64,000 nucleotides of DNA, from the IMG/VR virus record IMGVR_UViG_3300027749_000039, positions 1 to 64,000 of that record; one strand, written 5' to 3'. The notes below the pieces were generated by a model. It was not told the origin of the DNA. It did not search any database and was given only the letters and a program-made list of their open reading frames with translations. Within the stretch, counting starts at the first letter, position 1. Each line of letters begins with the position of its first letter. Origin of the DNA: a virus. The translations under genes were made by a program, and so were the position numbers. This document shows, in pieces, positions 1 through 57,354 of the stretch.

Positions 1-315
1 ATAACACCTTGTTTTAGAGATGAATTTGAATTAGATTACTTACACTCAAATTATTTTATGAAGGTAGAATTAATTGATACACTAAATCCGAATAAAAAGG
101 GATTAGATAGTATGATTGATTGCGCTTTGAAATTCTATTCACAATATTTAGAGGTTAGAGTATTAGAAATTGGAGATGAATTATATGATATAATTGACGT
201 AAAAAATAGCATAGAACTTGGTTCATATGGTACAAGACAATATAAAGATTTAAAATGGGTATTTGGGACAGGATTAGCTGAACCAAGATTAAGTAAAGTT
301 TTGAAATTACAATAA
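1..315 (+). CDS. Minimal class II aminoacyl-tRNA synthetase-like catalytic domain (5'-truncated by window edge)
   Basis: Frame is open from base 1: ITPCFRDEFELDYLHSNYFMKVEL (motif 2-like FRxE...H...F), IELGSYG, WVFGTGLAEPRL (motif 3-like). The ORF-track ATG at 58 is internal. Confidence 0.75.
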   Translation: MTPCFRDEFELDYLHSNYFMKVELIDTLNPNKKGLDSMIDCALKFYSQYLEVRVLEIGDELYDIIDVKNSIELGSYGTRQYKDLKWVFGTGLAEPRLSKVLKLQ

Positions 316-382: not shown

Positions 383-2023
383 ATGCTATTAACGAAAAAT
401 AAACTAGAGGTATATAATGAATTATATTTTGATTTTTTAGAGCCAAAATTTAATAACTTTGAATTTTTCAAAAAGTTCAAAACTTCACTTATTAATCCAG
501 ATATAAAATTATCTGATATAAAGATAACATTTTTACATTTAGGTAAAAATGATTGCAGAATGAAAGCTTCTGATATAATTGATATAATGAAAAATATGGA
601 TAATAAAACAATATCTCGCTATGACTATTTCGAGAAAATACTAAATGAAATGGCTATTCCGTATCTAAATGTAGATGACGTGACAAAAGTTAAATTTGCG
701 GAAGTGTTTACTCCTATTTGGTTAATAGACGAGCAGTTAGATAACTGCTTTCCAAAGACAGACTGGTCTAATCCAAACTTAACTTGGTTAGATGCTTCTA
801 ATGGCATCGGAAATTATCTTATAAGAATTATACAAAGACTATTAATAGGATTAGCTAATGTCGAAGGCTTCGAAGATGAAGAAGTTAGATACAGACATAT
901 AATAGAAAAAATGGTTTATGCTTGTGAAATACAACCTATAAATATGTTTTCTTATATCTTTTTCATTGATCCAAAAGGAGAGTATAATACTAATTTTTAT
1001 AGAGGTGATTATTTGAATCCATTATTTAATCTTAATATGAGAGATAATTGGAAATTAATATCATTTGATAGAATACTTGGTAATCCACCTTACCATATAA
1101 AGGATAATGGCGCCAAAGCTTCTTCTAAACCTATTTATAATAAATTTATTGAGCAATCAATAAATATAAGTAATAAAAATACGATTATATCGTTTATAAC
1201 TCCATCTAGATGGTTTGCTGGTGGCAAAGGTTTAGATACATTTAGAAAAATGATGATGGAATCAAATAAATTATCTTGTATTAAGCATTTTGACGATGCA
1301 AGCACGGTTTTTGGTGAAGTTGATATTAAGGGTGGTGTATCATATTTTTCTTATGATAATTCGTTTAGTGGTAAATGTGATTTTAATGGTATTAATGTTA
1401 ATTTAAATAAATTTGATGTGATAGTATCAAATACTAGCTCCATGATGCTAATTTCTAAATTACTTGAAATGGAAAGTATAGCGGATATACATCATGCTCG
1501 TTCATATTTTAAAATTAGCACAAATGATAGTAGATTAGTTGATACACAACTAAATGATAATTATGCTTTATGTTATGTAGCACAACAAAAAGGATTTACT
1601 AAATGGATAGATAAAACTGATCTTAAAGTATCTAATACATGGAGAGTAGTTACACCAAGAGCCGCCACAAAAGGTGGATGTGGATTTGGTAATATATTTA
1701 TTTCTAAACCAGGTGAGTATTTAAATGATACTTATTTGTCTTTTTTTGTAAAAAGCGAAAATGAGGCTAAGTCATTAGCTTCTTATTTGAGAACAAAATT
1801 TGCTAATTATCTACTTTCTCTAAGAAAAGTTAGTCAAGACATTAGTAATGGAACTATTAAGTGGATACCAAAAGTTTCTTTTGATAGAGAGTGGAATGAT
1901 GAATTATTATTTAAGTATTTTAATTTAACAGAAGAAGAAATCAATTTAATCATAGAGGCAGATTTAGAAAAAAAAGTTGTAAAGAAAAAAAGAATAAAAA
2001 ATGATTACAGTAGAGCATTATAA
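383..2023 (+). CDS. N6-adenine DNA methyltransferase, Eco57I/TaqI-like with C-terminal target-recognition region
   Basis: Motif I WLDASNGIGNY, motif IV ILGNPPY, ITPSRWFAGGKG. Confidence 0.85.
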   Translation: MLLTKNKLEVYNELYFDFLEPKFNNFEFFKKFKTSLINPDIKLSDIKITFLHLGKNDCRMKASDIIDIMKNMDNKTISRYDYFEKILNEMAIPYLNVDDVTKVKFAEVFTPIWLIDEQLDNCFPKTDWSNPNLTWLDASNGIGNYLIRIIQRLLIGLANVEGFEDEEVRYRHIIEKMVYACEIQPINMFSYIFFIDPKGEYNTNFYRGDYLNPLFNLNMRDNWKLISFDRILGNPPYHIKDNGAKASSKPIYNKFIEQSINISNKNTIISFITPSRWFAGGKGLDTFRKMMMESNKLSCIKHFDDASTVFGEVDIKGGVSYFSYDNSFSGKCDFNGINVNLNKFDVIVSNTSSMMLISKLLEMESIADIHHARSYFKISTNDSRLVDTQLNDNYALCYVAQQKGFTKWIDKTDLKVSNTWRVVTPRAATKGGCGFGNIFISKPGEYLNDTYLSFFVKSENEAKSLASYLRTKFANYLLSLRKVSQDISNGTIKWIPKVSFDREWNDELLFKYFNLTEEEINLIIEADLEKKVVKKKRIKNDYSRAL

Positions 2024-2309: not shown

Positions 2310-2873
2310 ATGACACTCAAACCAGAAGTAAACAACATTATTTCATATCTTCTCAAAATAGAAGATAGTAATAGCTTTAGATGTATTGATTTATTAAACT
2401 TTTTTATGGATAAATATCCTGATGCTCCTGGTTCATCTGGTAATCATCAAGCTTATGAAGGTGGTTATTTTAAACATGTTAGTGATATTCTAGAATATGC
2501 CTCTACTATGTATAAATCGTTAATGAAGAAAGATAAATTAGGGTTTAGTCTTTCTGATGCTTTATTAGTTTTATTTTTACATGATATTGAAAAACCTATT
2601 AAATATAGTCCAATTTTAGTTAAAACTGGTGTTATAGATGAGAATTCTTTTATAGAAGAAGAGGTTTTAGAGTATGAGACTGATTCAGATGACGAAATTA
2701 GAAAAATGTTGATTGAAAAGTTCAATATAAAATTAACAGAAGAACATAAATTGGCATTGAAATATATTCATGGTGAGGGACATGATTATCGGAAAGATAA
2801 GAGAGTGATGTCACCTTTATGCGCTTTTTGCCATTGTTGCGATGTAATAAGTGCTAGAATATTTTTTGAATAA
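2310..2873 (+). CDS. HD-domain phosphohydrolase
   Basis: NHQAYEGGYFKHV, LFLHDIEK, HGE, HCCDVISAR metal-binding pattern. Confidence 0.8.
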   Translation: MTLKPEVNNIISYLLKIEDSNSFRCIDLLNFFMDKYPDAPGSSGNHQAYEGGYFKHVSDILEYASTMYKSLMKKDKLGFSLSDALLVLFLHDIEKPIKYSPILVKTGVIDENSFIEEEVLEYETDSDDEIRKMLIEKFNIKLTEEHKLALKYIHGEGHDYRKDKRVMSPLCAFCHCCDVISARIFFE

Positions 2874-4603: not shown

Positions 4604-4671
4604 AAAAGATTGAAAAATCACATCTTAATTTGAGCCATTCACTCCGAATTGGCTCAAAAAAAAAATCCTTT

Positions 4672-5502
4672 ATGTACAACACAAAAATTTACAACACACT
4701 CGTCCAAAAAATGAGAGGCTTTTTCCTGGAAAAAGGTTTCATCGAAGTTCCAACACAATCTAGAACTTCAATTCTCGCAGCTTGCGAAAATCCACACTCA
4801 GTTATGACTTTTCAATTAGACGGAGAGGTTTGGCCATTAAAACAAACAGGTCAAATGGATCTTGAAGAAGAATTGCTTAAAAATCCGGATTGGCCAGGAT
4901 GCTTTTGCTTAACTACATCTTATAGAGATGAGAAAAATCCAATACCTGGTAGGCATAACAAAATATTTCCAATGTTTGAATTTGAAGCAAAAGGAAATAT
5001 TGAGCATTTAAAACAAATGGAAAAGGAATTAGTAGTATATCTTGGATTTGACACACCAGTTGAAGTTAAATATGAAGATATGTGTGCTAAATATGACGTT
5101 TCAATTCTTGAAAATGAACAAGAAATAGAAATGTGGAATGAATTAGGACACTCTGTTTCTTTACAACAATTTCCTCTGCGCACGAGCCCCTTCTATAACA
5201 TGTATATGAACCCTGATAAAACATTTAATAAAATAGATGTAATATTATATGGTCAAGAAACAATTGGTTCGGCTCAAAGATCATGTGACCCAAAAATAAT
5301 GCGTGAATTATTCTATACAATATCAGATGGTGAATATGCTGCAAAATTATTTCAATTATTTGGCAGGGAAAGAGTTGAGAAAGAGTTAAACGAATTCTTA
5401 TCACTTGAATTCTTTGAAAGATATGGTGGAGGCATAGGAATAACGCGTCTAAGTCGAGCATACGAAATGTTAATGGCAGAAAAAATGCAAGAAATGGTAT
5501 AA
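4672..5502 (+). CDS. Asp/Asn-tRNA-synthetase-like catalytic domain lacking the anticodon-binding domain (archaeal-type asparagine synthetase/AsnRS2-like)
   Basis: Motif 1 FFLEKGFIEVPT, motif 2 TTSYRDEKNPIPGRHNKIFPMFEFE, ETIGSAQRS, motif 3 YGGGIGITRL; no N-terminal OB fold; ATG 4672 preferred over TTG 4630. Confidence 0.8.
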   Translation: MYNTKIYNTLVQKMRGFFLEKGFIEVPTQSRTSILAACENPHSVMTFQLDGEVWPLKQTGQMDLEEELLKNPDWPGCFCLTTSYRDEKNPIPGRHNKIFPMFEFEAKGNIEHLKQMEKELVVYLGFDTPVEVKYEDMCAKYDVSILENEQEIEMWNELGHSVSLQQFPLRTSPFYNMYMNPDKTFNKIDVILYGQETIGSAQRSCDPKIMRELFYTISDGEYAAKLFQLFGRERVEKELNEFLSLEFFERYGGGIGITRLSRAYEMLMAEKMQEMV

Positions 5503-5540: not shown

Positions 5541-5597
5541 TCTTTATACGCATCTAAATTATATTAAACTTTGACTAACATTAAAAATATAAAATTA

Positions 5598-7142
5598 ATG
5601 CTAATAGACACTCAATATTTAAGTCACACAAGAAAGCTAGTTTTATCGTATGTAGATAAAACTGGTAAGACAAAAATGAAATACTTTGATTGGACAAACC
5701 CAATGAAGTATCAAAACTGCGATTCAACGGATCCAGATAAACATCCACGGTTTAAATCATGGGATGGCAAACCTGTTAAGAAAATTCCGGCAGGATATCC
5801 TGATAGATATGCAATTTATGAATTTTTAGATAATCTTCCAGAAGATGAAAAGACTGAAATCTTTGAATATAACGACCCTGAAATCTATTTTATAGATATT
5901 GAAACAGCGTTAGATCCAAATACAGGCGGTTATTCTCAACCAGAAGACCCAAATGGACAAATATTGTCTATATCTTTGGTTTATGCTGATAAAATAATTC
6001 TAATGGGATTGAAAGATATGCCAGATGATATGCAAAAACGGATTATTGATGATACTAATAAATACTTTGCAAAGTTTGACAGCCATTATAAGTTTAAGTA
6101 TATTAAATATAATGATGAATTTAGTATGATTAAATCTTTCTTTGAAGATTTTGTGCCAAAAATGACTTGTTTAACTGGTTGGAACTTTGTGGGTTATGAC
6201 TGGTTATATTTAGTAAATCGTGCTAGAAAACTAACTAAAATCATAAATGGTGAGCAATTAACTATTGATCCAAATATATCTTCTCCTACAAAGAGAATGA
6301 ATAAAGTGTGGATGACTAATTATGAATTACCAGCACATAGACTTATATTTGATTATATGCAGTTATATGAAATCTGTGATACTTCAATCAAGGTTAAAGA
6401 ATCATCATCACTCGACTTCGTAGCAGGCAAATTAGTTGGTGTTAATAAAATCAAATATACCGGTAATTTACATAAATTATACGAAGATGATTTTGAATTA
6501 TTCATGTATTATAACTGCGTTGACTCTGTGTTGGTTCAAAAAATACACGAAGCTAAAAATTATATATCAATCGTATATGCGGTTTCATCACTTGCTAAAA
6601 TACAAATTAAAGATGTAGTTAATCAATCTAAAGGAGCTTTAGCGTCATTAGCAATTACAGAAGGTGTATTAAGAGACAGATTTAGAGATATGGAAGACAT
6701 CGTTTTGTTTAAAAACGAAGATAGACCTTCTTATGACGCAGAAGATACCGCTTTAGCAGGTGGTTGGGTAAAAGACCCAGTGACAGGTATGAACTTATGG
6801 GTTGTTTGTTATGACTTTGCATCTCTTTATCCAACCACGATGTTGGAGTTCTTTATAGCTCCGGAGAATTTTGTAGGAGTGCAAAATTCGGAAAATAAAT
6901 CTGTTTGCACTAATGGTATGCCAATTGATTTAACGAAACATGTTGTTTGTATAAATGGTGTGGTATTTAAAAAACACAGGTCTCCAACAATCACTATGAT
7001 AGAAGATGTTTATGCAGATAGGAAAAAAGCTAAAAAAATTATGATGCAAAAAAAAGAGGAATATCAAAGAATAATAAACGAAATAAAAGAATTAGAAGCC
7101 GAACTGAGCTCCTGCGCCTACATAAGTAAGCAAAATAATTAA
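5598..7142 (+). CDS. Family B DNA polymerase, N-terminal subunit (3'-5' exonuclease + motif A + first finger helix; gp43A-like)
   Basis: ExoI FIDIET, ExoII GWNFVGYDW, ExoIII YNCVDS, motif A YDFASLYP; ends after YADRKKAK helix with no KxxxNSxYG or DTDS. Confidence 0.9.
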   Translation: MLIDTQYLSHTRKLVLSYVDKTGKTKMKYFDWTNPMKYQNCDSTDPDKHPRFKSWDGKPVKKIPAGYPDRYAIYEFLDNLPEDEKTEIFEYNDPEIYFIDIETALDPNTGGYSQPEDPNGQILSISLVYADKIILMGLKDMPDDMQKRIIDDTNKYFAKFDSHYKFKYIKYNDEFSMIKSFFEDFVPKMTCLTGWNFVGYDWLYLVNRARKLTKIINGEQLTIDPNISSPTKRMNKVWMTNYELPAHRLIFDYMQLYEICDTSIKVKESSSLDFVAGKLVGVNKIKYTGNLHKLYEDDFELFMYYNCVDSVLVQKIHEAKNYISIVYAVSSLAKIQIKDVVNQSKGALASLAITEGVLRDRFRDMEDIVLFKNEDRPSYDAEDTALAGGWVKDPVTGMNLWVVCYDFASLYPTTMLEFFIAPENFVGVQNSENKSVCTNGMPIDLTKHVVCINGVVFKKHRSPTITMIEDVYADRKKAKKIMMQKKEEYQRIINEIKELEAELSSCAYISKQNN

Positions 7143-7152
7143 TATATAAAAT

Positions 7153-8016
7153 ATGGAAGAAAAAAGATATTATATTTATGTATTTTTAGATAATACTAAA
7201 CCGGGTAAATATGTTTATGATAACTTAAAGTTTGACTATGAACCATTTTATATAGGAAAGGGAACTGATGATAGAATTATAACATCATTTTATGATAAAC
7301 AAACTTTCAAATCAAATAAGATTAAATCAATAAAAAATAAAGGTGGTGATGTTATTAGATATAAATTATATGAAAATCTAGAAAATTTTGAAGCACTAGA
7401 ATTAGAAAAGATTCTAATTTCAAAAATCGGTAGAAGAGATTTATATAAAGGAACTTTAACCAATCTAACTCATGGTGGTGATGGAAGATTAGCATCGCCA
7501 CATACTGAAGAAACTAAAATAAAAATATCCGAAACTAAGAAATCTCAACATTTACATTCTATTATTACAGATTCGCAAAAAGAATATCTTAGAGAAATTA
7601 ATTTAGGTGAAAAAAATCCTATGTATGGTAAAACACACACTGATGAAGTAAAAGAAAAGCAGTCTTTGTTAGTTTCTGGCTCAAATCATCCTATGTATGG
7701 TAAAAAACATAATGAAGAAACTATACAAAAGATAAAAGATAAAAGAAATAACGCTGTAAATCAAGAAACTGCAAATTTAGATTCTAAATTACGAAACAAT
7801 AAAGCAATTTTGCAATATGACTTAAATAATAATTTTATAGCAGAGTTTGAATCAATTAAGTTTGCCTCTATTGAATTGAAAATATCCGAATCTTTAATTG
7901 GTAAAACTTGTAGAGGAATTGTTAAAAATCCAAGAAAATTTATTTTCAAATTTAAGGAAGAAAGTGATAAGATATTAACTAATTCTTATGAATTAAAAGA
8001 AGGTGATATAGATTAA
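7153..8016 (+). mobile_element. Free-standing GIY-YIG homing endonuclease with NUMOD3/NUMOD1-like repeats; C-terminus apparently frameshifted
   Basis: YYIYVF...FYIGKG...R, NLTHGGDG, NPMYGKTH/HPMYGKKH, ILQYDLNNNFIAEFESIK; LIKRCKMTVIVEE continues in another frame to about 8120. Confidence 0.85.
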
Positions 8017-9567: not shown

Positions 9568-10395
9568 ATGCATTATATAATACAAGAAAATATATTCAAA
9601 GAATCTCACTATAATCTTCTCATAGATACTATGCAGAAGTTAAACTTACCACATCAAGTAGTTAGAATTTTTCCTTTTGTTGATAAAATTATTGATATAA
9701 ACGATATACCAGAAGATAATGACTTTAATGTAGATGAACTACCTGATGTTACTCCACCTGAAAATACACCGATATTTGTATTTGGTGCCGTTAAAATGGC
9801 ACGTATTTGCGCACAAAAGAATTGGACACCAGGTTCTTTATTAAATACTAATCATGATTTTGAGGTTTATAGCAAATATTATAAAGAAAATCTTTTAAAT
9901 TATGATTCCGAATTAGTTAAAGCTGGTAGTGACTTTAATTGGGACACTGAGCGCAAATTTATTCGCCCAACCAAAGATACAAAGGCATTTACTGGTAAAG
10001 TGTTTAAACAAGAAGATTGGATACAATTTATTACTGATAACATCGGTAATGAGAAAACATTATTAAATGAAAATACCACTATTCAAATTTCTTCTGTTAA
10101 AGAAATTTATAAAGAAATAAGATTCTGGGTAGTAAATGGTAAAATAATTACTGGTAGCCAATATGCTATAGGTGGTAAAGTATCCTATAATGAGTATTTC
10201 GAACCAGAAGCATTAGAATATGCACAAAAAATGGTAGATATATATCAGTTGGCAGATGCATTTGTAATAGATGTTTGTTTAACTGATGATGGATGGAAAA
10301 TTGTTGAGTGTAATTGCATTAATTGTGCAGGATTTTACTTGTGTAATATGCAGAAAATGATAATGGAATTAGAATATTTTTTTGATCCTTCTTAA
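9568..10395 (+). CDS. ATP-grasp domain protein (R2K/DUF4343-like)
   Basis: KFIRPTKDTKAFTG, EIRFWVVNGKIITGSQY, AFVIDV, KIVECNCINCAGFY. Confidence 0.8.
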   Translation: MHYIIQENIFKESHYNLLIDTMQKLNLPHQVVRIFPFVDKIIDINDIPEDNDFNVDELPDVTPPENTPIFVFGAVKMARICAQKNWTPGSLLNTNHDFEVYSKYYKENLLNYDSELVKAGSDFNWDTERKFIRPTKDTKAFTGKVFKQEDWIQFITDNIGNEKTLLNENTTIQISSVKEIYKEIRFWVVNGKIITGSQYAIGGKVSYNEYFEPEALEYAQKMVDIYQLADAFVIDVCLTDDGWKIVECNCINCAGFYLCNMQKMIMELEYFFDPS

Positions 10396-54411: not shown

Positions 54412-54484
54412 GAGGGTATAGCTCAGTTGGAAGAGCATCTGACTCTAAATCAGAGAGTCGTGGGTTCGAGCCCCACTATCCTCT
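54412..54484 (+). tRNA. Amber suppressor tRNA (anticodon CUA)
   Basis: Acceptor GAGGGTA/TATCCTC, D-stem GCTC/GAGC, anticodon arm TCTGA-CTCTAAA-TCAGA (CTA at 54445-54447), T-arm GTGGG-TTCGAGC-CCCAC, N73=U, CCA not encoded. Confidence 0.92.
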
Positions 54485-54491
54485 CTTAAAT

Positions 54492-55672: not shown

Positions 55673-55690
55673 TAAGTTAATATATACTTT

Positions 55691-56485
55691 ATGTATATAC
55701 GAAATTGTCCATCTTGTGGAAAAGAATTGACCTACACTACTAATTATAGTAAAAATAGGCAAGAAAAACTAAATAAATCTTGTAGAAGCTGTACTACCAA
55801 AAAGGAATATGTTATAAATCCGGATAAAAATAAAGGAGAAGAAAATGGTAGATTTGGAAAATCATTATTAGAAGTAATGAACAACAAATATGGTGAAAAA
55901 AAAGCAGAAATTAATTATAATAATTGGAAAAATAACAAAAATTCTTTTGGGATTAAAGAAAAAAATCCACAATATGGTATTTCCCCATTTAAGAATAATG
56001 GAATGTCATATAAGGGATGGTATAAAGGAATGTTTTTTAGAAGTAGTTTTGAATTGATGTTTATATTTGAAAATTATGATAAAAAAATAATTTCCGCAGA
56101 AACAAAAGAATATAGAGTTAGTTATAATTATTTAGGTAATGAAACACATTATTATCCGGATTTTTATAGCGAAACAAATAATACCATTTACGAAATAAAA
56201 TCTAAAAAATGGTTATTAGATAGTAAAAATCTTCTAAAAATAGAAGCAGGTAAGGAAGAATTTAAAAAAAGAGGAATTAAATATGAGGTATTATGTGAAT
56301 ATGATATGGATATATTTAAAAAATATAATTCTGATTGGCAGAAAATTATTTATGATTTTCTTTATGAATTAGTCATTTATAATGAAGTTAATTTAACAGA
56401 CTTGTCTTTTAAAAAATTAAAATTAAAATTGTTAAAAACAAAAAGGATTACAAAACTAAAAACAATAGAAAATACTATGAAGTAG
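55691..56485 (+). mobile_element. Putative homing endonuclease (zinc ribbon + NUMOD3-like + TnsA-like PD-(D/E)xK)
   Basis: CPSCG...CRSC, GEENGRFGK, NPQYG, FRSSFEL, HYYPDF, IYEIKS; ends at the TAG of the next gene's start. Confidence 0.7.
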
Positions 56486-57055
56486 ATAACATTATCAGCA
56501 TTAAGAGAAGCGATGGAAAGTTGCGAACAAACAAAGGGGGTCTCTACCTTACAACATGGTCTATCCGTTAAAAATTATTTATTTGATTTACTAACTCATT
56601 TAAGAAATGAAACGCCATTAAAATATGAATGGTCATTACCAAAATGGGTAATTGAGAACAAAGAATTTTTATTAGATAATTTATCTGATGATAAAACGCT
56701 ATCATTATATACCGAGTATCATGATTGTGGAAAATGGTCATGTCTTGAAGTTGATGATGACGGCAAAAGACACTTTCCAAATCATGCTGAGAAATCCTAT
56801 GATATTTTTAAACAAACATTTAAAAACCAAATAGCAGCTATATTAGTTAAACATGATATGGATATACATACTTTAAAAGCAGATGGTGTTGAAAACTTCT
56901 GTAAAAATCCATTAGCAATAACATTGTTATTAACTGGACTTGCAGAGATACACTCAAATGCTAGTATATTTGGTGGTATTGATAGCACAAGTTTTAAGAT
57001 TAAATTAAAAAGTATAACACAAAGAGGAAAACAAATTTTAAATATTCTAAAATGA
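56477..57055 (+). CDS. HD-domain hydrolase with in-frame TAG at codon 3
   Basis: ATG AAG TAG ATA ACA TTA TCA GCA TTA AGA GAA GCG ATG... in frame with CEQTKG...QHGLSV, YHDCGK, HFPNHAEKS, HDMDIH, AEIHSN; ATG 56513 is the alternative start. Confidence 0.7.
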
Positions 57056-57354
57056 TAGAAGTAATACAAGATACTACATCAAAATATGGACCATGGTTAG
57101 CCGAATTTGGAACTTATGAATTAGTAGACGACGGTATACTAACCGCAGATGAATCACAAATACTAGATGATTCTTCTGGTGAATATGAAGTATTGAAATG
57201 TAAATTGAAAAACATTGATTTCACAAAACTTCAATATGGTAGCAAATTTTTGAAAGTCAAAAGAAGTAATGGTAATATTGAAACTTGGTCATATGGTGGT
57301 CAAAGTAGAATTATTCCAGAAGAAAATTTTAGTTTTTTTACAAGACCGATATGA
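57052..57354 (+). CDS. Hypothetical protein
   Basis: 100 aa. Confidence 0.65.
   Translation: MIEVIQDTTSKYGPWLAEFGTYELVDDGILTADESQILDDSSGEYEVLKCKLKNIDFTKLQYGSKFLKVKRSNGNIETWSYGGQSRIIPEENFSFFTRPI

Follow-up and report, generated by a model that had tools for sequence, protein, structure and literature searches.

Known systems built on a class II core

Several described systems use a class II aminoacyl-tRNA synthetase (aaRS) core, or a protein resembling one, and differ in what the core serves. Seryl-tRNA synthetase (SerRS), a class IIa enzyme represented here by the TIGR00414 model and by PDB entries 7u2a, 6ote, 2dq0 and 1ser, binds tRNA-Ser through its N-terminal arm and its motif 2 loop, and PylRS (catalytic domain, PDB 2zni and 2q7g) is proof that a bare class II core can charge tRNA. 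The amino acid:carrier-protein ligases, exemplified by Bll0957 (PDB 3mey), descend from methanogen-type SerRS; they activate an amino acid and hand it to an acceptor other than tRNA. HisZ has lost the class II catalytic residues and is a non-catalytic protein that binds HisG, and the small pyrophosphatase HisE acts one step after HisZ-HisG in histidine synthesis. EpmA (PoxA/GenX) has a LysRS-type, i.e. class IIb, core. The phage locus described below encodes a core that shares traits with these systems; it stands nearest to SerRS both by sequence and by fold, as judged from profile alignments and a structure model, and it is almost always paired with a small MazG/HisE-like protein.

A truncated gene at the start of a phage contig

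The window, meaning the whole 64,000-nt stretch of DNA that was analysed, forms the beginning of one virus record of 190,602 bp with a CheckV completeness of ~31%. The frame at its left edge is open at the 5' end and, as read, comprises 104 residues (ITPCFRDEFELDYLHSNYFMKVEL...IELGSYGTRQYKDLKWVFGTGLAEPRLSKVLKLQ) followed by a TAA stop at 313-315; because the record is a ~31%-complete fragment of a huge phage, the frame is cut at the contig end. The first features of the window are as follows.

1..315, plus strand: 3' part (104 codons and TAA) of the SerRS-type mini-core gene, class II; based on the match to PHROG 4806 (E 2.7e-21), identity with the whole protein P0013 and the modelled fold of its relative P0001
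316..382, plus strand: 67-nt spacer from the mini-core gene to the next gene; equal spacing on two other assemblies with the whole gene
383..2023, plus strand: Eco57I-type DNA methyltransferase-like gene; syntenic in the closest relatives only (L004/L014 and L005) and outside the conserved gene pair

All of the elements that the original prediction had placed within about 100 aa are present in the frame, namely class II motif 2 (TPCFRDE), H..YFMKVEL, ELGSYG and motif 3 (GTGLAEPRL), with the motif 2 Arg at residue 6 and the motif 3 Arg at residue 97 of the fragment. The protein ends 7 residues past motif 3, so that a C-terminal domain is absent, just as had been proposed for the anticodon-binding domain.

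The remainder of the frame was not found at the other contig end, where there is no terminal overlap and the tail codes on the opposite strand, and searching the contig itself turned up neither the missing N-terminal half nor the partner gene. Recovery of the upstream sequence, suggested from the outset as a check, was achieved from other assemblies. They yielded the whole protein, P0013, of 183 aa, which is 100% identical to the fragment over all 104 residues; the fragment corresponds to its residues 80-183, which leaves an upstream part of ~79 residues missing from the window. Motif 1 lies in P0013, and motifs 2 and 3 lie in the window. The P0013 gene sits on a 1,136-bp contig, where a truncated ORF runs 14 nt into its start; on an 11.2-kb contig with an identical methyltransferase downstream, the 183-aa gene again has a truncated ORF before it with a 14-nt overlap. 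On both assemblies, whose core genes are identical or near-identical to that of the window, the methyltransferase follows 67 nt 3' of the gene, matching the window, and the overlap at the start is the same as in locus L014. Since the contig is cut at this point, the partner gene is missing from the window and lies beyond the contig start. The fragment is the C-terminal 57% of the 183-aa protein, which we read as a SerRS-derived catalytic core.

The break inside the mini-core gene recurs: in three independent assemblies of this phage the ends fall only a few bases apart (at window position 1, and in loci L071 and L072, which retain 1-306 and 1-297, respectively). Such near-coincident breaks suggest strain variation or a repeat just upstream.

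A catalogued phage family with cellular members

The window copy is a contig-truncated member of an already catalogued phage family, PHROG 4806, which is labelled 'histidyl tRNA synthetase'. The fragment covers profile positions 81-184 of 190, and full-length relatives match the same profile at E values of 1e-59 to 1e-77. Against Pfam and NCBIfam the fragment gave nothing above threshold; the full-length relatives gave weak, mixed matches to PheRS, SerRS, D/K/N-type and PylS models. With tblastn the family was met in 274-276 phage records, and these matches, together with the PHROG 4806 E value, imply that the motifs of the fragment did not arise by chance. Its carriers include phi92-, rV5- and CR3-like phages of enterobacteria, T4-like Acinetobacter and Morganella phages, Caulobacter/Brevundimonas jumbo phages, Microcystis phages and huge metagenomic phages.

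When 1.84 billion representatives were searched with a profile, 1,466 clusters, mostly viral, came out at E <=1e-10 and just 158 more down to 1e-3, a distribution which sets the family sharply apart from true synthetases. Among species-representative genomes it was found 30 times, chiefly in CPR and DPANN bins. At least some of these members must be truly cellular, because a Saccharibacteria gene adjoins rpsL, rpsG and rpoC; a NUDIX gene is also found beside that pair.

Thirteen positions (P82, C83, F84, R85, F97, K99, E101, E149, S152, T167, G168, A170 and R173) are invariant in 51 diverse members, a degree of conservation that favours an active enzyme. The proteins are acidic (median pI 5.2; 4.8 for the window protein), which is a weak argument against strong RNA binding. 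Genomes holding the pair also encode a full SerRS. Genome papers name the mini-core gene SerRS (e.g. PMC8953757), and our literature search for a functional study of the pair turned up only annotation-level mentions and one neighbourhood reading.

With ~183 aa, the mini core belongs to the smallest class II synthetase cores found in nature. Judged from sequence, it appears to be catalytically intact and locked to a tiny putative pyrophosphatase in ~1,500 sequence clusters. The public labels 'histidyl' and 'seryl tRNA synthetase' have no support from tRNA charging, and correcting them bears on phage annotation as well as on claims of phage-borne synthetases or recoding machinery. The window copy itself, a truncated gene of a known family, adds little to this.

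Fold and nearest relative

A structure model was made for P0001, a relative 65% identical to the fragment, from a 51-sequence alignment (pLDDT 95.9, pTM 0.91), and it displays a class II core. It matched 69 solved chains at Z >=8, and the best 50 of these 69 were all class II aaRSs or class II-like proteins, which bears out the original assignment to the class II aaRS-like domains. Foldseek placed SerRS on top (E ~3e-10) and PylRS next (E ~2e-9). The exhaustive structural aligner VIA likewise ranked SerRS 7u2a first, with Z 19.6, an rmsd of 2.7 and all 184 residues aligned; below it came HisZ/HisRS (17.7, 17.0 and 16.5), PylRS (17.3), Bll0957 (16.3) and EpmA/GenX (13.4). The P0001 model aligns to 200 residues of PylRS versus 238 of SerRS.

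The sequence comparisons likewise put SerRS first. Searched against PDB sequences, the family profile found SerRS at E 4e-5 and PheRS weakly, and hhalign against four bacterial SerRS gave 96.5% probability (E 7.5e-10), with family positions 5-184 laid onto SerRS 167-401 of 425, so that the core aligns end to end. TPCFR-E is identical in the two; S58-x-E60 falls onto the SerRS T-x-E, F97-x-K99-x-E101 onto F-x-K-V-E and G-T167-G-x-A170-x-x-R173 onto G-S-G-L-A-x-G-R, giving S/T-x-E, F-x-K-V-E and G-S/T-G-L-A-x-x-R as elements common to both. Hence R85, F97, E101, T167, R173 and the S/T-x-E element line up with SerRS counterparts, which we take to be serine and ATP binders. E149-x-x-S152 has the spacing of the SerRS E-x-x-S, yet it lies two columns off in hhalign, so that its equivalence to the SerRS Mg/ATP residues is tentative.

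Compared with SerRS, the mini core begins ~166 residues later and has no coiled-coil arm; its motif 2 loop is shorter by 7 residues, three further insertions of 7, 9 and 7 residues are gone, and so is the C-terminal tail, which reduces ~425 aa to 183. Its scores are far under the family cut-off: the fragment gave no match to TIGR00414 (cut-off 301.65 bits) and the Vibrio phage homologue only 19.6 bits. Pfam tRNA-synt_2 gave sub-threshold matches at most on the family, and a profile of the C-terminal 50 residues alone returned chance-level matches only from the PDB sequences. A further departure from SerRS is the constant pairing with the MazG/HisE-like protein.

These results place the other systems at varying distances. 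The PylRS-like compactness that had been noted for the fragment holds as a description of size, as does the missing anticodon-binding domain, but not as kinship: SerRS is ahead on the PDB profile search, on VIA Z and in hhalign, there is no family-level sequence match to PylRS, no pyl genes were found on the contig, and the family mostly occurs without tRNA(CUA). The carrier-protein ligases share an armless class II core (182 residues aligned with Bll0957), but are ~300 aa long and work with a carrier protein, and they are 9% identical to the mini core, whose partner has a pyrophosphatase rather than a carrier-protein fold. HisZ and HisE offer a parallel in composition, since there, too, a class II aaRS-like protein goes with a pyrophosphatase that is small and all-alpha, and HisE is the top Foldseek match of the partner; unlike HisZ, however, the mini core keeps the catalytic residues and is closest to SerRS, and no HisG was seen near the pair. 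Finally, the alternative offered originally, an EpmA-like ligase, fits in that the anatomy is in kind that of a stand-alone ligase, whereas descent from EpmA does not, as GenX, with its LysRS-type core, scores well below SerRS in VIA. Read loosely, as a stand-alone amino-acid ligase of the EpmA sort, the proposal is plausible.

The MazG/HisE-like partner

An ~82-aa gene of PHROG 6408 lies just upstream of the core, on the same strand, in 13 of 13 loci whose GC content ranges from 25% to 54%, and the partner adjoins the core in 27 of the 30 loci of species genomes, i.e. in 40 of 43 loci overall. Among phage records, 279 contain the partner and 276 the core, and their host breakdown is equal. 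In 12 of the species-genome loci the partner is instead directly downstream, 8-28 bases from the core match, which suggests fusion by distance, the reading frame not entering into that estimate. Core-partner fusions of ~265 aa, in which the small domain follows the core, are represented by P0075, P0054, P0080, P0097, P0118, P0091, P0241 and P0372. A search for longer fused forms found one, likewise a MazG fusion; in addition, P0283 (443 aa) has an extra 266-residue tail with no Pfam match.

The partner is best described as a trimmed MazG/HisE-type nucleotide pyrophosphohydrolase, a prediction drawn from its sequence and modelled fold. Its invariant acidic residues E24, E25, E28, E44 and D47 form the pattern EE-x-x-E ... 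E-x-x-D, four of four members gave sub-threshold matches to Pfam PRA-PH (HisE), and some depositors have labelled it MazG-like. The predicted fold has three helices (pLDDT 91.5) and is without the first helix of MazG domains. HisE and MazG occupy the top Foldseek rows at probability 0.99 but E 0.3, and the VIA Z of 6.4 is within the helical background. A complex prediction for core and partner scored 0.00; run without controls, it weighs neither way on binding.

What might the pair do?

The explanation that we favour, at a probability of about 0.55, is that the SerRS-derived, adenylate-forming core and the MazG/HisE-like partner make up one two-part enzyme. The armless core would contribute the class II ATP-binding residues that it appears to keep, along with the residues aligned with the serine ligands of SerRS; the partner, a three-helix half of ~82 aa whose gene lies directly 5' with an overlap of 14 nt, or which is joined to the core C-terminus, would contribute the second activity. 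We infer catalysis, with serine as the probable substrate, along the following lines: the core would bind ATP together with serine or another small amino acid like it, and form an aminoacyl-adenylate; the acyl group would then pass to a nucleophile that enters without ordinary tRNA-identity recognition; and the partner would hydrolyse or prepare a nucleotide-type substrate at a coupled step.

As to the acceptor, something other than the candidates named here, or no transfer at all, has close to an even chance. An RNA or tRNA 3' end, in a setting of RNA maintenance, is a tentative suggestion; a free nucleotide or other small molecule linked to dNTP metabolism is rather unlikely, and a protein somewhat less likely still. 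It is a long shot that the pair forms one enzyme whose chemistry is new for aaRS relatives; it might, for instance, aminoacylate a nucleotide or an RNA 3' end regardless of tRNA identity, so as to shield, mend or label RNA ends or to change the dNTP pool of the infected cell. If this proves true, it would represent a new class of amino-acid/nucleotide ligase common to large phages, CPR bacteria and DPANN archaea. Against the favoured explanation count the weak structure matches of the partner, the offset of E149/S152, the fact that PylRS, a bare class II core, charges tRNA, and a gene context that points both to dNTP metabolism and, by way of RlaP, a CCA-adding enzyme and YqeY, to RNA ends.

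Gene neighbourhoods and the rival explanations

Apart from the partner, the neighbours of the pair differ by lineage; many belong to deoxynucleotide metabolism, and others suggest a link with RNA ends. In Morganella phage MP1 the pair is flanked by frd and td, with ribonucleotide reductase ~2 kb further; XM05 and KMB37 have ribonucleotide reductase genes after the pair, and so does PsgM04F by annotation, with no Pfam match for the gene. XM05 also has a dNMP kinase and a canonical MazG upstream. The CPR/DPANN loci feature NrdR, a radical SAM gene that is MoaA/viperin/NrdG-like, NUDIX, canonical MazG and an AAA_28 P-loop protein; this AAA_28 kinase, known near the pair elsewhere, is absent from the contig studied here. 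In five CPR/DPANN-labelled loci (L033, L043, L056, L057 and L061) a fused mini-core~MazG gene directly adjoins the radical SAM gene, which encodes ~227 aa and gives MoaA-, viperin- and NrdG-like matches, and NrdR is near in L033, L040, L054 and L056. RlaP nucleotidyltransferase genes lie near the pair in CR8 and in the Vibrio phage, CR8 has a CCA-adding enzyme in the gene run of the pair, and in KMB37 a YqeY-type protein follows it. RlaP adds nucleotides to damaged RNA 3' ends (preprint 10.64898/2025.12.29.696909), and a neighbourhood of rV5-like phages with a MazG-superfamily gene has been read as RNA-end repair (Iyer et al., PMC9503650). Within the window, one further gene downstream of the methyltransferase recurs with the pair.

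2310..2873, plus strand: 187-aa HD-domain-like protein, with motifs recognized by eye and a weak match to the HD region of YhaM; PHROG 5889

It lies at most ~4 kb from the pair in five loci, two of them in 455-463-kb phages, and is possibly an accessory gene.

Could the mini core be a genuine minimal synthetase after all, seryl or other, that charges phage tRNAs (tRNA-Ser or any acceptor stem) in support of translation in tRNA-rich phages, with the MazG-like protein as an accessory? The catalytic residues appear intact, and all ten genomes in which tRNA sets were compared (nine others carrying the pair, plus the window contig) have 7-69 tRNA matches each, the window contig having 46, with tRNA-Ser in every one. 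The YqeY-type protein after the pair in KMB37 (the YqeY domain binds tRNA), and the CCA-adding enzyme and RlaP in CR8, point the same way. Large genomes, however, confound tRNA richness; the parts through which SerRS holds tRNA-Ser are gone or, in the motif 2 loop, 7 residues shorter; the family is acidic; and a full SerRS is already present in the pair genomes. Moreover, we know of no precedent for a strict coupling of a synthetase to a pyrophosphatase, and on balance a minimal synthetase seems unlikely.

Another possibility is that the mini core is a non-catalytic regulatory subunit which, in the manner of HisZ with HisG, responds to ATP or an amino acid and thereby steers the MazG/HisE-like pyrophosphatase when nucleotide pools are managed. 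HisZ and HisRS are among its top structural matches, the partner resembles HisE, and the pair is often found beside ribonucleotide reductase, NrdR and thymidylate genes. By sequence, however, it is nearest to SerRS, not HisRS, and its class II catalytic residues are all invariant in the 51 diverse members, which, HisZ having lost such residues, is not expected of a purely regulatory paralogue; we consider this role improbable.

The suppressor-tRNA question

The fragment had been put forward as a candidate synthetase for a phage suppressor tRNA, and the contig does carry one tRNA(CUA) in addition to 45 other tRNAs.

54412-54485, plus strand: tRNA(CUA), 74 nt long and short in its variable arm; none of the other 45 tRNAs of the contig is close to it

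Its 'Pyl' label in ARAGORN derives from the anticodon alone. The co-occurrence test proposed with the candidate does not favour it: three of the nine other pair genomes, two 455-463-kb phages and Acinetobacter phage AM101, have a tRNA(CUA), and six (Morganella MP1, Cronobacter CR8, Vibrio 2.275.O, Escherichia KMB37, Erythrobacter XM05 and Pseudomonas PsgM04F) have none. The tRNA(CUA) genes found in pair genomes are short-armed and mutually unrelated in sequence. With this contig included, four of ten genomes carry tRNA(CUA), which may amount to a loose association with the pair; the constant companion is the MazG/HisE-like gene.

Against PylS_Cterm (TIGR02367, cut-off 178 bits) the fragment gave no match at E up to 1; the only match on the contig, of 13.5 bits, is at another gene, and the CR8 homologue reaches 14.7 bits. 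PylD was not found on the contig, itself 31% complete. Nor is there a clear sign of amber recoding of the contig, where TAG terminates 10 of 181 long frames: of two frames that run past TAG, one restarts at an ATG two codons on and the other (55676-57060) resembles two genes. With tRNA(CUA) missing in six of nine genomes, and no PylS or PylD on the contig, the suppressor-synthetase reading is not supported. A PylRS-like enzyme specifically charging phage tRNA(CUA) to read amber codons, for which the compact core, the tRNA(CUA) of this contig and of three other pair genomes and the weak PylS_Cterm match in CR8 could be cited, is therefore very improbable, the existing tRNA(CUA) genes being unrelated and SerRS standing above PylRS by every measure used.

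Other features of the contig

Downstream of the HD-domain-like gene, the window holds three further features that deserve mention.

4630-5502, plus strand: second class II aaRS-like gene that stands alone; product of 290 aa, matching Pfam tRNA-synt_2 (D/K/N type) at E 2.9e-9; PHROG 29758
5571-8016, plus strand: family B DNA polymerase region; the 523-aa frame spans the exonuclease domain and ends a third of the way into the polymerase domain
9568-10395, plus strand: R2K-clade ATP-grasp protein (Pfam R2K_3 E 2.7e-23), predicted to be a peptide or amino-acid ligase

The first of these gives weak AspRS matches, has no anticodon-binding domain and keeps its place in the gene order of the closest relatives; at the DNA level it is similar to the 'tRNA ligase' of Prochlorococcus phages P-SSM2, P-SSM5 and P-SSM7. 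The polymerase gene seems to be split, its remaining part not having been located: a GIY-YIG/NUMOD homing-endonuclease gene comes directly after the polymerase frame, followed by a DNA methylase. Outside the window, the contig, with 46 tRNA genes in all, has tRNA genes at 129-173 kb, including one of 90 nt at 133744-133833 with a four-base anticodon (ctga) according to ARAGORN. The gene behind the 13.5-bit PylS_Cterm match is a 502-codon open frame on the minus strand at ~73.3-73.8 kb; it also gives a weak tblastn match to the mini core and may be a third aaRS-like gene.
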